Notes: generated by a model not told the origin, from the sequence alone. A DNA stretch of 38,244 nt from Candidatus Thorarchaeota archaeon (GCA_003345595.1 PRDI01000011.1:1-38244), one strand, 5' to 3'. Counted from the stretch's first letter, positions 12,809 through 21,347 are shown. Numbers and translations are program-made.

Positions 12809-13213
12809 ATGATACAAATCGGTGACTCCATCGAGCTGAGCAAGCAGATAACGGAAGATGACGTGCGCAGGATTGTCGAGATCAGTGGTGATGATAACCC
12901 TCTGCATACAAGTGACGAGTTCGCCAAACGAACTCTGTTCAAGGGACGCATCGCACATGGCATCTTGTCCGCAGCTCTAGTATCTGCTGCACTCACGAAG
13001 CTCTTTGGCCCGGGCAATGTCTGGATGTCACAGACGATGAAGTTCACATTTCCGGTGAGAATCGGGGAAACTGTCACTGCGAGATTGAGGATTACGTCAA
13101 TCGACAAAAGAAACGTGGCTACAGTGGAAACAAAGGTGTTGAATCAAGACGGTCGTGTCGTTCTGGACGGTTTCGCAGAGTCCAAGGTAATGAGGATTCG
13201 ACCCCTAAAGTGA
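12809..13213 (+). CDS. MaoC/PhaJ-type (R)-specific enoyl-thioester hydratase (hotdog fold)
   Basis: Hydratase-2 motif ISGDDNPLH..DEFA...FKGRIAHG, then FGPG and F..PV.IGETV. ATG 12809 is preferred; the longer ORF from 12581 adds non-homologous sequence. Confidence 0.93.
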   Translation: MIQIGDSIELSKQITEDDVRRIVEISGDDNPLHTSDEFAKRTLFKGRIAHGILSAALVSAALTKLFGPGNVWMSQTMKFTFPVRIGETVTARLRITSIDKRNVATVETKVLNQDGRVVLDGFAESKVMRIRPLK

Positions 13214-13222
13214 GGGATTAGG

Positions 13223-13462
13223 TTGTCTAAGCTTGGGAGATTCAACCAACTTGTCTGTGAGGTATTCAAAGTCAATGAGTCAGATCTCAGCGACAGCGCA
13301 ACTCCCGATGACATCGAGGATTGGGACTCAGTAACACATATGGACCTGATGGCCCTCTTCGAAGAAGAGTGGGCTCTGGGCCTAGATGTAGAGGAGATTA
13401 CCGAGATGACAAGCATAGGTCTCATGAAGGAGATACTGAGGAAACATGGTGTTGACCTATGA
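13223..13462 (+). CDS. Acyl carrier protein
   Basis: 79 aa, highly acidic and helical. The phosphopantetheine site is DDIEDWDS*VTHMDLM..FEEEW. TTG start with gaggg upstream. Confidence 0.92.
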   Translation: MSKLGRFNQLVCEVFKVNESDLSDSATPDDIEDWDSVTHMDLMALFEEEWALGLDVEEITEMTSIGLMKEILRKHGVDL

Positions 13463-18490: not shown

Positions 18491-19489
18491 ATGAGCCCCT
18501 CCAAGATACTCAGGAAGTATGGCGTGCCTGAGGACGCTGTCGGAACGTGCGGGATACAGAGTCTGAGAGCCAAATATGTATCGTACTTGGACAACCCACA
18601 CTACATTTCACAGGTGCCCAGCAATGCCGATGGGTACGTCCTCGTCAGCCCGAAACTCATTGAGAGAGTGAGAGAGATTCCGGGGAATCTCTATGTGGAG
18701 ACGGCCAGTCCCACACAGGCGTTCCTTGAAATCCACAATGACTTTCACAGGGACGTGCGGTCGTTCACGACCGGGAGCAACACGCCGACCCATGGGAGCA
18801 ACTGCGAGATTGACGCGTCGGCCAAGTTTGGGGTACGTGTCACATTGGGCAGTGGAGTAAGAATCCATCCTCATGTCGTTGTAGGCAGCGATGTCGAAAT
18901 TGGCGATGACACCGAGGTCTTCGCGGGCACTGCGATATACAACAGAGTACGATTGGGCAGACGGTGCATCATAGATGCCAATGCGAGCATTGGTGGCGAT
19001 GGGTATAGGATAATGATGGATGCTGAGGGGAATATTCATCGACTGATTCACATCGGAGGCGTTCGCTTCGGGAACGATGTGGAGTTTGGCAACAGTTCCT
19101 GTGTTGACCGTGGCACCTTCGAGGACACGATCTTGGAGGACCGTGTTAAGATTGATAACATGGTTCACATTGGACACAATGTCCACATCAAGGAGAACAC
19201 TCAGCTTGCCGCTTCGTCGTGCATTGGCGGAAGCACAGTGATCGGTCGCAACTGCTGGGTTGGCATTGGAGCAACCATCTCCAATGGACTTGTAATAGGG
19301 GACAAAGCAAGTGTCTTGATCAATGCCATTGTTGTTAGGGATGTCCCCGAGGGCGCGAGAGTTGCTGGGTTCTATGCAATGCCCAATGATGCATGGCGCC
19401 TGGTTGTCATGGACGATACAAAACGCTTCGGAACACAGGTGAGGGAGATGGAGAGGAAGCGTTCAGACTCGGAGGACCGGCAGGAATGA
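18491..19489 (+). CDS. LpxD-family left-handed beta-helix N-acyltransferase
   Basis: Hexapeptide repeats plus the LpxD-specific string IGGDGY...HIGGV.FGNDVEFG..SCVDRGTFEDTI....KIDNMVHIGHNV, including the catalytic His. It also has an N-terminal alpha/beta domain ending in P..AF. The ORF opens at 18365; ATG 18491 is preferred. Confidence 0.88.
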   Translation: MSPSKILRKYGVPEDAVGTCGIQSLRAKYVSYLDNPHYISQVPSNADGYVLVSPKLIERVREIPGNLYVETASPTQAFLEIHNDFHRDVRSFTTGSNTPTHGSNCEIDASAKFGVRVTLGSGVRIHPHVVVGSDVEIGDDTEVFAGTAIYNRVRLGRRCIIDANASIGGDGYRIMMDAEGNIHRLIHIGGVRFGNDVEFGNSSCVDRGTFEDTILEDRVKIDNMVHIGHNVHIKENTQLAASSCIGGSTVIGRNCWVGIGATISNGLVIGDKASVLINAIVVRDVPEGARVAGFYAMPNDAWRLVVMDDTKRFGTQVREMERKRSDSEDRQE

Positions 19490-20544
19490 CTACTCGCCGG
19501 GTCATACGATTCGAGAAAGTCCTTGAGGAGGCAGAGATCCTCACTCCCTCAGCGGGGTTCAAGCTGGACACACACGAGATCGAGCACAGGCGGGACCCTC
19601 TGACGGGCCATAGGAGCTTGGTTGGTCTAAGGCTCATAGAGAAATACAGGTCCCTTATGGGTGAAACTGACAGGGAACTGGTAGACAAGCTGGTGGCAAG
19701 TAGCGCCGAGAAGTGCTTCTTCTGTCCAGATATGGTAATGAGTGCAACCCCCATGTTCTCCAAGAGCATCGTGTCCAGTGGAAGGATTGCCGTGGGAGAG
19801 TCAACACTTTTTCCCAATCTGTTTCCTCTTTCGTTGTACCACGCAATCATAGTCCCATGCAAGAAGCACTTTCTCCGGCCCGAAGAGTTCACGGCAGGGC
19901 TCATCGGAGACTCGCTTAGGGCAGCTCAGACATTCCTGCGCGGCATTCCTCTCTCCAAGGAGCTGTACGGCTCCATCAACTGCAACTACATGCCTCCCGC
20001 CGGAGCGAGCGCGGTTCACCCTCATTTTCAGTTCATCGTTTCTACAGTCCCCTCCAGCTACACGGAGGAAACCCTCAACGCTCTCAAATTGTACTATAGG
20101 CAGTACCAATCCGTATACTGGGACGACTTGGTGGAAGTGGAGAAGGAAAAGAAGGAACGGTATGTCGGAGCCACAGGTCCTGTTCAGTGGCTCTGCACCT
20201 ACTCTCCCCGAGGTATGAATGAGATTCTAGGGGTCTGCCCGCAAGGCGGCCTTTCCAAAATGGAAGACAGGACGATCCAGGGTCTTGGAGAAGGTGTATC
20301 TCGTGCGCTCAAGTACTACGGCAGTCACAACTACTCAGCTTTCAATATGAGCATGGATCTTGGCCGTTTGGAATCAGATGATCCGTGGAACAGACTCACT
20401 GTTCGGTTGGTAACACGCCAGAACTTCTCTGCGGGGTATAGAGCAGGTGAGCATTTCTTTCAACATATGCTGGCGACGAACGTCGTTGTGGTCCCGCCAG
20501 AGGTGCTCGCATTGGAACTCAAACAGTACTTTGTAGGTGAGTGA
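19486..20544 (+). CDS. GalT-like (HIT superfamily) sugar-phosphate nucleotidyltransferase
   Basis: EHRRDPLTG, CFFCP, FPNLFP, N..PPAGASAVHPHFQ (HxHxQ), PPE. ATGA overlap with the LpxD-like gene. Confidence 0.9.
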   Translation: MTTRRVIRFEKVLEEAEILTPSAGFKLDTHEIEHRRDPLTGHRSLVGLRLIEKYRSLMGETDRELVDKLVASSAEKCFFCPDMVMSATPMFSKSIVSSGRIAVGESTLFPNLFPLSLYHAIIVPCKKHFLRPEEFTAGLIGDSLRAAQTFLRGIPLSKELYGSINCNYMPPAGASAVHPHFQFIVSTVPSSYTEETLNALKLYYRQYQSVYWDDLVEVEKEKKERYVGATGPVQWLCTYSPRGMNEILGVCPQGGLSKMEDRTIQGLGEGVSRALKYYGSHNYSAFNMSMDLGRLESDDPWNRLTVRLVTRQNFSAGYRAGEHFFQHMLATNVVVVPPEVLALELKQYFVGE

Positions 20545-21347
20545 TATTGTTCGATTTGAGCAAGGGATTTCTAACAGAACTAAAAGAGGGCATTCGCAAG
20601 CTGATGTCCAGTGCGGCAACCTCGCGGATGCCGCGCGCGGATCTCACCCGCATCTGCCAAGAGGAGGGACACTTGTCCATTCACGGCGTCAAACTTGACC
20701 TGAGCGCCGGGGACGCGTGTCCGAAGTCGCTTCTCGACTCTCTAACGTCCGAGGAGAGAAAACAAGCAGATGGGCTTGAGAAAAGCTGGAGAATGAGGCA
20801 GTATTGCACTGGAAGGGTGTTGGCAAAGCGGTCTGTTGTAGACGTCTGTGCACACATAGGAGTCCGTGTGAAGACTCAAGTAGTCTCGATAGTTGATGAT
20901 GAGCGTGGAGCTCCCGTGTGCAAAGTTGAATCGGAACGTGAACTGCCTGCCATTTCTGTGTCGCTAACGCATAAAGGGGACGTGCTGCTGGCTGTTGCTT
21001 CAATTGCTGAGCGCGTTGGAATTGACCTTGAGGACCTGTCTGAATCTCATCGTGGAACTGCCCAGTGGACGTCTGTTGACCGAAACGGAAAACTCAAGGA
21101 CGCAGCTAAGAGCAGAGTCGAGCAATTGTGCGGATACACAGACCCAGGCCGAATTGCCACTGTCATGTGGTGTGTCAGAGAGGCGGCCTACAAGGCACTA
21201 AGTCGAGGAAGACCTCTTTCTCCCATCCAGATTGTCCTGCAGTCAGCTGAAGGTCATCTGGTAGCCCGTGCAGGACCGGACAGCCCATTACAGGCAAATG
21301 TGGTCATCGGCTGTATGGACCAGTATGTCTGTGTCCTAGCCCTCTAG
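20541..21347 (+). CDS. 4'-phosphopantetheinyl transferase (Sfp/EntD-like)
   Basis: LTSEE, GR.LAK, GAP, SLTH, VGIDLE, WCVREAAYKAL. GTGA overlap with the GalT-like gene. Confidence 0.9.
   Translation: MILFDLSKGFLTELKEGIRKLMSSAATSRMPRADLTRICQEEGHLSIHGVKLDLSAGDACPKSLLDSLTSEERKQADGLEKSWRMRQYCTGRVLAKRSVVDVCAHIGVRVKTQVVSIVDDERGAPVCKVESERELPAISVSLTHKGDVLLAVASIAERVGIDLEDLSESHRGTAQWTSVDRNGKLKDAAKSRVEQLCGYTDPGRIATVMWCVREAAYKALSRGRPLSPIQIVLQSAEGHLVARAGPDSPLQANVVIGCMDQYVCVLAL

Follow-up and report, generated by a model that had tools for sequence, protein, structure and literature searches.

Among the closest described relatives of the genes reported here are those of Vibrio cholerae O1 designated rfbK-O/wbeK-O (VC0248-VC0252; Morona et al. 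1995, Gene 166:19, according to the passages of PMC12208996 that cite it). RfbK is a carrier protein, RfbL/WbeL (VC0249, 471 aa) a ligase, WbeM (VC0250) an iron-dependent alcohol dehydrogenase (Fe-ADH) and WbeN (VC0251, 825 aa) an acyl-protein synthetase and acyl-CoA reductase; the product is a 2,4-dihydroxybutanoyl ('tetronate') amide on perosamine (PMC12208996, PMC3441752, PMC9915646). Here we describe a stretch of 38,244 nucleotides from a Candidatus Thorarchaeota archaeon (GCA_003345595.1, PRDI01000011.1:1-38244; hereafter the window, meaning the whole stretch analysed) that carries, at positions 12809-21347 of the plus strand, an operon with the same core: an acyl carrier protein (ACP), an ANL-family ligase, an Fe-ADH, a LuxE-type acyl-protein synthetase and a LuxC-type reductase. 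We document its gene content and order, its intact catalytic residues, its conservation as a unit and its glycan context, and we conclude that it is likely to be a cassette for the carrier-protein-dependent acyl tailoring of a surface glycan, in which a small hydroxy-acyl group is built on the operon's own ACP and moved to an amino sugar.

In the content and order of this core (carrier, ligase, Fe-ADH, LuxE, LuxC) the operon and V. cholerae wbeK-N are equal, and the ANL ligase occupies the position of wbeL (PMC12208996). Both loci further combine a carrier bearing a phosphopantetheine serine, a surface-glycan setting and an N-acyltransferase, which in the archaeon is of the LpxD type. By this analogy the core is of a kind already known. 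The two loci differ in that LuxE and LuxC are separate proteins here whereas WbeN is fused; in that the operon adds a MaoC protein, its own 4'-phosphopantetheinyl transferase (PPTase), a GalT-fold enzyme and an alpha/beta hydrolase; and in that its transferase is LpxD-type and perosamine genes are absent from the locus. The comparison rests on published gene sizes, order and names. What is new is the output end, that is, the LpxD-type transferase, the GalT-fold enzyme and the in-operon PPTase, in an Asgard host.

Related modules are known from other bacteria. In the flagellin glycosylation islands of Aeromonas group II and the Enterobacteriaceae, genes for an ACP, FabG, an AMP-ligase, LuxE and LuxC occur together, placing an ACP-ligase-LuxE-LuxC core next to sugar genes, in this case those for pseudaminic acid (PMC7874193, PMC4875605). 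These islands are bacterial and differ from the operon in that the FabG ketoreductase replaces the Fe-ADH and in having no MaoC, GalT-like or PPTase gene; a further locus, the metagenomic L054, links a module of the flagellin-island type to an LpxD-like transferase and a PPTase. In Clostridium, the operon acp-caiC-luxEC of the XanR sigma-54 regulon is co-regulated with 4-hydroxybutyryl-CoA dehydratase (abfD), in connection with butyrate/butanol metabolism (PMC6615313). The clostridial sequences form the nearest bacterial clade in our LuxE tree (49-54% identity) and share the ACP-ligase-LuxE-LuxC core, with MaoC in some loci, but they have no adjacent Fe-ADH orthologue, acyltransferase or glycan genes.

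The LuxE and LuxC proteins of the operon also resemble those of the Lux system, as represented by the LuxC-LuxE complex 7xc6, solved by cryo-EM (PMC9157457). Both align over most of their length with the cysteine positions kept: in LuxE the C-terminal Cys, within RGCGD, falls opposite the C-terminal Cys of the LuxE chain of the complex, and the LuxC Cys in ACSSPH falls opposite the corresponding residue of 7xc6_A. Against the luminescence equivalogs, however, the scores fall far under the cut-offs (70.8 versus 550 bits for LuxE with NF052244, and 113.5 versus 750 bits for LuxC with NF052251), and a luminescence-type supply of fatty aldehyde was rejected on this ground. Scans of the window revealed neither luxD nor luxAB, the rest of the genome not having been searched for these genes. 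Compared with the Lux system, the substrate of the operon is probably ACP-tethered and short.

Gene content and catalytic residues of the operon

The operon consists of nine tightly packed, co-oriented open reading frames (ORFs), identified by ORF, Pfam and NCBIfam analysis of the window (Table 1). Overlaps of 4 nt are found at 13459, 19486 and 20541 and one of 19 nt at 16021, with gaps of 9, 4, 2 and 62 nt at the other junctions. An earlier note on this DNA, made by a model from the sequence alone, had described nine co-oriented genes joined in this way, and the analysis of ORFs and junctions bears it out. At the distal end of the operon, the last 44 nt of the PPTase gene (21304-21347) also form the 3' end of the convergent alpha/beta hydrolase gene. 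The MaoC start at 12809 is backed by alignments of homologues. Comparison with other genomes leads us to assign the convergent hydrolase gene to the unit as its tenth member: the hydrolase is 48-49% identical, and adjoins the operon, in both of the other Thorarchaeota genomes that have the operon, and same-genus genomes without the operon hold only paralogues of 27-28% identity.

The earlier note had also judged the catalytic motifs to be intact, and this holds for the ACP, ligase, Fe-ADH, LuxE, LuxC, MaoC, PPTase, LpxD-like and GalT-like proteins. The ACP carries its serine in a W(D/T/S)S motif (WDSVTHMDL), and this serine does not vary across 11 syntenic homologues. In MaoC the hydratase-2 motif SGDDNPLH is present; the ligase, which is 74% identical in Thor relatives, has the A3 motif TSGSTGKPK; and the Fe-ADH has the NAD motif GGGxxxD together with the D/H metal ligands. 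In the PPTase the motifs GIDLE and WCVREAAYK (W-x-x-R-E-A-x-x-K) are present; with its ACPS domain above the cut-off, and with Mg-binding and W/FxxKE-type motifs, its sequence is that expected of an Sfp-type enzyme. Searches of the host genome identified the operon ACP as the only PP-binding candidate and the operon PPTase as the only ACPS match, and it is fair, since both sole candidates lie in the operon, to call the system self-contained, as the earlier note had done.

Natural fusions of the ligase to LuxE, of LuxE to LuxC and of the Fe-ADH to LuxE occur in other genomes, the last of these in Hermod-type Asgard proteins, and they argue for one coupled pathway. The ligase-LuxE fusions (P0148 and relatives) are approximately 860 aa in length, and one is named for the methanogen Methanohalophilus profundi. 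Judged from this fusion sequence, the cassette is taken to reach the Euryarchaeota as well.

Table 1. Coordinates of the operon genes, the island anchors and related features (positions counted from the first nucleotide of the window unless another sequence is named)
Feature	Position	Strand	Remarks
MaoC-type (R)-specific hydratase/dehydratase	12809-13213	+	134 aa; PF01575 76.6 bits
Dedicated ACP	13223-13462	+	79 aa, TTG start; PF00550 17.9 bits
ANL-family acid ligase, probably acyl-ACP synthetase	13459-14958	+	PF00501 237 bits, and PF13193
Group III iron alcohol dehydrogenase (Fe-ADH)	14963-16039	+	PF00465 103 bits
LuxE-type acyl-protein synthetase	16021-17139	+	PF04443 204 bits
LuxC-type acyl-thioester reductase, predicted to be aldehyde-forming	17142-18428	+	PF05893 264 bits
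Predicted divergent LpxD-type acyl-ACP:UDP-amino-sugar N-acyltransferase	18491-19489	+	NF002060 236.6 bits (cut-off 207)
Predicted GalT-branch HIT nucleotidyltransferase/phosphorylase	19486-20544	+	352 aa; family without Pfam model
Predicted Sfp-type PPTase	20541-21347	+	PF01648 26.9 bits (cut-off 25), weak AASDHPPT_N match
Convergent alpha/beta hydrolase	21304-22218	-	PF00561; accompanies operon
TatD, conserved left anchor of island	11752-12540	-	Nre-TatD syntenic in same-genus G002, G003
CCG/4Fe-4S protein, conserved right anchor	36415-38097	-	77.5% identical in G003
PIG-L family de-N-acetylase	35707-36402	-	PF02585 68.7 bits; candidate supplier of free sugar amine
PF00953 transferase sites	MK-D1 L006, CP042905.2 ~735.9-737.2 kb; G170:C1:4235222-4235686		Beside cassette

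The LpxD-type transferase and the GalT-like protein

The transferase is predicted to be of the LpxD type, moving an acyl group from acyl-ACP to a UDP-amino sugar. It matches the solved LpxD structures of the PDB with an E-value of 2e-33 over the N-domain, the beta-helix and the C-terminal helix, and phmmer aligns its residues 18-323 with residues 27-336 of E. coli LpxD (3eh0). All three parts are present in the AlphaFold (AF2) model (pLDDT 92.6), whose top 25 fold matches are all LpxD, and the catalytic His-Asn pair, H229-N230, is invariant in the homologue alignment. TIGR01853 gives 216.5 bits, which is under the equivalog cut-off of 242.5, and only the looser subfamily model NF002060 passes. 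At a column some 37 residues past the catalytic His, Gly is found in 16 of 17 Thor-clade sequences and a second His in 21 of 27 distant LpxDs. Relatives at 58-77% identity bear only Thor/Sif names, a few more lie at 41-48%, and ordinary bacterial LpxDs are at about 30%. On these comparisons we place the enzyme in a divergent clade that has to date turned up in Thor/Sif archaea only.

In the LpxC and LpxD steps of lipid A synthesis, as in the scheme proposed below, a GlcNAc-type sugar is de-N-acetylated and then N-acylated from acyl-ACP, and the operon transferase shares the three-domain fold and the catalytic His of LpxD. It differs from that enzyme in its sub-threshold equivalog score and in having Gly where most have the second His. 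Moreover, the deacetylase here is of the PIG-L type and not LpxC. LpxA was not found in the host genome (G000, 83% complete), and LpxC, LpxB and LpxK gave no match in the same incomplete genome under searches in which bacterial controls matched. The PF00109 matches in the host genome are short, partial and of the thiolase type; they occur in all of the archaeal controls and so provide no evidence of a ketosynthase. Lipid A synthesis, for which LpxC, LpxB and LpxK are not found in this incomplete genome and the ketosynthase matches are thiolase-like only, was rejected.

The GalT-like protein gave no Pfam match even at an E-value of 10, and NF008724 scores it at 21 bits, where the cut-off is 448. 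Its family, of some 592 clusters at 50% identity, lies outside the Pfam/NCBIfam GalT models. A profile of 62 members of this family matches ADP-glucose phosphorylase (1z84, E 9e-20) and E. coli GalT (1hxq, E 3e-17), and the AF2 model (pLDDT 94.7) superimposes in Foldseek on 1z84/GalT structures with TM values of 0.64-0.76. In the motifs CFFC (CxxC) and HPHFQ (HPHxQ), residues C77, C80, H178 and H180 do not vary among the 62 homologues, at least 90% of which also have Q182. The profile matches, the modelled fold and the CxxC/HxHxQ conservation together lead us to assign the protein as a putative HIT nucleotidyltransferase or phosphorylase of the GalT branch, from a family unmodelled by Pfam. 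A 381-aa ORF located 3' of bacterial LuxE-LuxC fusions was considered as a counterpart of this protein and rejected, its sequence being unrelated.

Genomic setting and distribution

The host is an Asgard (Thorarchaeota-type) metagenome-assembled genome (MAG) of 2.73 Mb, and the window is the whole of one of its contigs. The proteins encoded in the window find their best matches in Thorarchaeota and other Asgard archaea. On the left of the operon, two same-genus genomes that do not have it share the gene order of the Nre-TatD flank, with proteins 52-86% identical. In one of these, G003, TatD lies only some 4.2 kb from the orthologue of the CCG protein with different content between them, from which we conclude that what lies between these conserved anchors, 12541-36414 (12.6-36.4 kb), is a variable island that contains both the operon and a glycan locus. 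The glycan genes of the island encode GT2, GT4 and GT-C (PMT-type) glycosyltransferases, WecB, PIG-L, an LPG-synthase-TM protein and an Asn-synthase-like protein. The operon lies, as the earlier note had stated, between archaeal housekeeping genes (Nre and RpoH, to the left) and a glycan locus (glycosyltransferases, WecB and PIG-L, to the right). All ten genes are kept in two other Thorarchaeota MAGs, G008 and G382; in G008, which represents another genus of the family, they stand beside TatD in inverted orientation. The GC content is uniform across the window, at 0.50-0.54. The unit was probably acquired horizontally.

Other genes of the window are recorded here as side observations. RpoH/Rpb5 (8685-9293, plus strand) has, according to Pfam, an extra N-terminal Mrr_cat domain (restriction-endonuclease fold, E 1e-8) before the Rpb5 C-domain, and this two-domain form is 86% identical in same-genus genomes. 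In the glycan locus, the Asn-synthase-like protein (PF00733; 25774-27090, plus strand) has no GATase-domain match and could be an amidoligase that modifies a uronic acid with an amide or amino acid; a full-length Asn synthase is present in one bacterial cassette locus. Between the GT2 gene and the Asn-synthase-like gene is a 546-aa ORF without a Pfam family (23976-25616, minus strand), which may encode a membrane polymerase or flippase.

Of the 400 Asgard genomes sampled, only 11 have a full-length LuxE orthologue, three of these being among the 86 from the window's own family, so that the unit counts as accessory. The two cultured Asgard archaea, Promethearchaeum syntrophicum MK-D1 and Lokiarchaeum ossiferum, carry the core (ACP, ligase, Fe-ADH, LuxE and LuxC, with or without MaoC) in their closed genomes, and the best 80 genome loci include cassettes in Heimdall and Woesearchaeota MAGs. 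Taken with the ligase-LuxE fusion of Methanohalophilus, these occurrences show that, among archaea, the cluster is not unique. A search of the literature returned no paper in which Asgard archaea are connected with LuxE/LuxC or with LpxD.

In MK-D1 and L. ossiferum, the neighbours of the cassette are a GT4 initiating transferase, DUF354, a PPTase and alpha/beta hydrolases, with a 215-aa NeuD/PglD-like hexapeptide transferase and a LegC/PseC-like (DegT) aminotransferase also near. The sole PF00953 (AglH/WecA-type) initiating glycosyltransferase of each closed Lokiarchaeia genome directly adjoins the cassette. An initiating transferase of this family puts the linking sugar on its lipid carrier.

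A quick tree was computed for LuxE; its root is arbitrary and we claim no direction of transfer from it. The Thor and Loki sequences form one clade (support 97), nested in a well-supported group that also takes in Heimdall, Woesearchaeota, two contigs and 30 Clostridium species and excludes Planctomycetota, Acidobacteriota and Lachnospiraceae. Among the best 80 genome loci an Fe-ADH orthologue adjoins the cassette only in Asgard archaea, and it does so also on the metagenomic contig L053. Every non-clostridial cassette context that we opened lies among sugar genes, the bacterial ones being polysaccharide loci. The L053 cassette has PMT, PIG-L and an LpxD-like gene as neighbours, and L054 is a NeuB nonulosonate cluster with PIG-L, LpxD-like, PPTase, ligase, LuxE, LuxC, ACP and ketoreductase genes. 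A PIG-L gene stands beside the cassette in four other loci (L041/L051, L053, L054).

The premise of the earlier note that archaea lack ACP-based chemistry fails for this phylum, where ACPS (PPTase) matches occur in 128 of the 400 Asgard genomes, some of them inside polyketide synthase (PKS)-like megasynthases. The premise is corrected accordingly: judged from such domain matches, carrier-protein chemistry is common in Asgard genomes, and not exotic. Stand-alone AcpS-like ORFs of 150-190 aa are found in 38 of 85 genomes of the window's family (e.g. G350:C30:3782-4096), although not in G000-G003. Frames of approximately 3,200-3,800 aa that have an ACPS domain, with the PPTase domain at the end, occur in at least five Asgard families. 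One such open frame of 3,515 aa (L147:1390-11937, corresponding to G052:C1:567389-577936, in a closed 3.3-Mb Asgard genome) contains an NMO-like ER, KS, AT, three PP-binding (ACP), KR and PKS-DH domains and a C-terminal Sfp-type PPTase, and from these domains we classify it as a putative type I PKS or polyunsaturated fatty acid (PUFA)-synthase-like megasynthase. The literature search returned no paper on Asgard megasynthase frames of the PKS/PUFA-synthase-like kind.

Proposed function and alternatives

We propose the following route for the operon, inferring the sequence of reactions, which acid is used, which sugar is the acceptor, and what the GalT-like protein and the hydrolase do. The Sfp-type PPTase would convert the ACP to its holo form. 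The starting acid would be short, most likely a dicarboxylic or hydroxy acid of the C4 class such as malate, fumarate or succinate, and would be handled by two adenylating enzymes: the ANL ligase would load one carboxyl onto the ACP, and LuxE would activate the other for reduction to the aldehyde by LuxC, with the Fe-ADH taking the aldehyde to the alcohol. MaoC would add or remove water at C2/C3, hydrating a fumaryl-type or dehydrating a malyl-type thioester. The LpxD-type enzyme would then take the finished hydroxy-acyl group from the ACP and attach it to a UDP-amino sugar at its free amine; among the tetronate genes of V. cholerae we take RfbO to be the final acyltransferase. The island's own PIG-L deacetylase would probably uncover the acceptor amine, and the neighbouring glycosyltransferases would then use the acylated sugar. 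A probable role for the GalT-fold enzyme is nucleotide exchange or removal on either acceptor or product, and the alpha/beta hydrolase probably edits the ACP, perhaps as an editing thioesterase or an esterase.

The combination of two adenylating enzymes with a carrier, a thioester reductase and an alcohol dehydrogenase fits a dicarboxylic acid that is tethered at one end and reduced at the other, and by analogy this is the logic put forward in 1995 for the tetronate amide of V. cholerae O1. The PIG-L gene, in the island and beside four other cassette loci, suggests deacetylation followed by re-acylation, and the clostridial co-regulation with 4-hydroxybutyryl-CoA dehydratase hints at C4 chemistry (PMC6615313). 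The earlier proposal that the operon loads, tailors and transfers an acyl group to a nucleotide sugar gains from the conservation of the unit, the glycan island and the LpxD-type transferase; it gives way in that relatives are known (wbeK-N) and lipid A is uninvolved.

Several points weigh against the cassette as proposed. The V. cholerae pathway is itself, in the passages of PMC12208996 that treat it, a sequence-based proposal of 1995. WbeN is not among the best 120 fused LuxE-LuxC matches (at least 38% identity), nor in the best 80 genome loci, and the kinship between the operon and V. cholerae is therefore probably one of family and not of close orthology, with a LuxE identity that is probably below 38%. 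The literature searched held no reconstitution of any step of an ACP-ligase-LuxE-LuxC cassette. Profile scores for the ACP and the PPTase are weak, the former under its cut-off (17.9 versus 20.8 bits for PF00550) and the latter close to it (26.9 versus 25). The 83% completeness of the host genome makes the absences from it provisional. The best NCBIfam name of the ligase, at a score under its cut-off, is 'long-chain-fatty-acid--CoA ligase'. Canonical LuxCE and LpxD use C14 chains. Finally, the clostridial relatives of the cassette lie outside glycan loci.

The long substrates of canonical LuxCE (a C14 acid) and LpxD ((R)-3-hydroxyacyl-ACP), and the long-chain subfamily name of the ligase, would suit a pathway to long-chain lipid. 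In such a pathway fatty acyl-ACP would pass through an (R)-3-hydroxyacyl stage by way of MaoC to N-acylation of the UDP-GlcN type and a lipid-A-like anchor, while LuxE, LuxC and the Fe-ADH made a fatty aldehyde or alcohol. The (R)-3-hydroxyacyl thioesters that MaoC produces are of the donor class used by LpxD, and the succession of PIG-L and N-acylation mirrors the LpxC/LpxD order. We nevertheless regard this explanation as improbable. Neither LpxA, LpxC, LpxB and LpxK nor a true ketosynthase was found in the genome, and there is no acyl-ACP dehydrogenase to supply enoyl-ACP; the transferase has the low equivalog score and the replacement of the second His described above; and LuxE, LuxC and the Fe-ADH would be left as a disconnected side branch despite the fusions to the ligase seen elsewhere. 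Moreover, the closest described relatives handle C4 units (PMC12208996, PMC6615313).

A second alternative takes the sugar genes to be mere neighbours of a non-glycan, small-molecule pathway like that of Clostridium, in which an ACP-bound acid is turned into an aldehyde or alcohol for fermentation or for a secondary metabolite. The nearest bacterial clade, with its 30 Clostridium species, is indeed without glycan genes and belongs to a butyrate/butanol regulon (PMC6615313), but the Thor LpxD-type and GalT-fold genes lie inside the operon at 4-nt overlaps and in each of three different archaeal layouts the core stands amid sugar genes, and we give this explanation only a slim chance. That a bacterial operon was mis-joined to an archaeal contig in assembly is barely credible: most members of the family are bacterial and the host is a MAG, but the Nre-TatD and CCG flanks are syntenic with same-genus genomes, the unit lies beside TatD in the independent MAG G008, the core is found in two closed genomes of cultured Asgard archaea and the GC content is uniform, so that chimerism of the contig is rejected as far as sequence comparison tells, and bacterial contamination through a chimeric junction, a possibility raised in the earlier note, is contradicted by the flank synteny and by the recurrence of the unit in two other Thorarchaeota MAGs.

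Overall, we favour the acyl-tailoring cassette for a surface glycan, and a lead to the product of its Asgard relatives comes from MK-D1. In this organism, which has provided the only Asgard glycoproteome, the N-glycans are linear, with a linking sugar of 304.127 Da that is tentatively HexNAc + Thr, and with two further unexplained residues of 311.08 and 303.10 Da (PMC11284389; preprint 10.64898/2026.04.15.718822). The mass of 304.127 Da corresponds to C12H20N2O7, and by calculation this formula fits equally an N-acetyl diamino-hexose with a C4 hydroxy-acyl amide, either as a dideoxy sugar with dihydroxybutanoyl or as a trideoxy sugar with trihydroxybutanoyl. The link is a coincidence of mass together with gene context and not evidence of identity, and the HexNAc oxonium ions from glycans without HexNAc favour the authors' HexNAc + Thr reading over a cassette-made sugar (PMC11284389); that the cassette makes the linking sugar of Asgard N-glycans is in our view doubtful. 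If it were true, ACP-dependent acylation would be built into the protein N-glycosylation of the closest archaeal relatives of eukaryotes, and the Thor unit would be a version of the cassette whose output is LpxD-type.

Surface-glycan loci widely contain the ACP-ligase-LuxE-LuxC cassette, that of the cholera O1 antigen among them, and in its Thor variant an LpxD-type acyl-ACP transferase appears to have been put to use outside lipid A. The versions found in Asgard archaea are compact, have their own PPTase and are present in two cultured strains, which makes them a clean system for chemistry, and they offer a concrete gene candidate for the unexplained sugars of the first Asgard glycoproteome.

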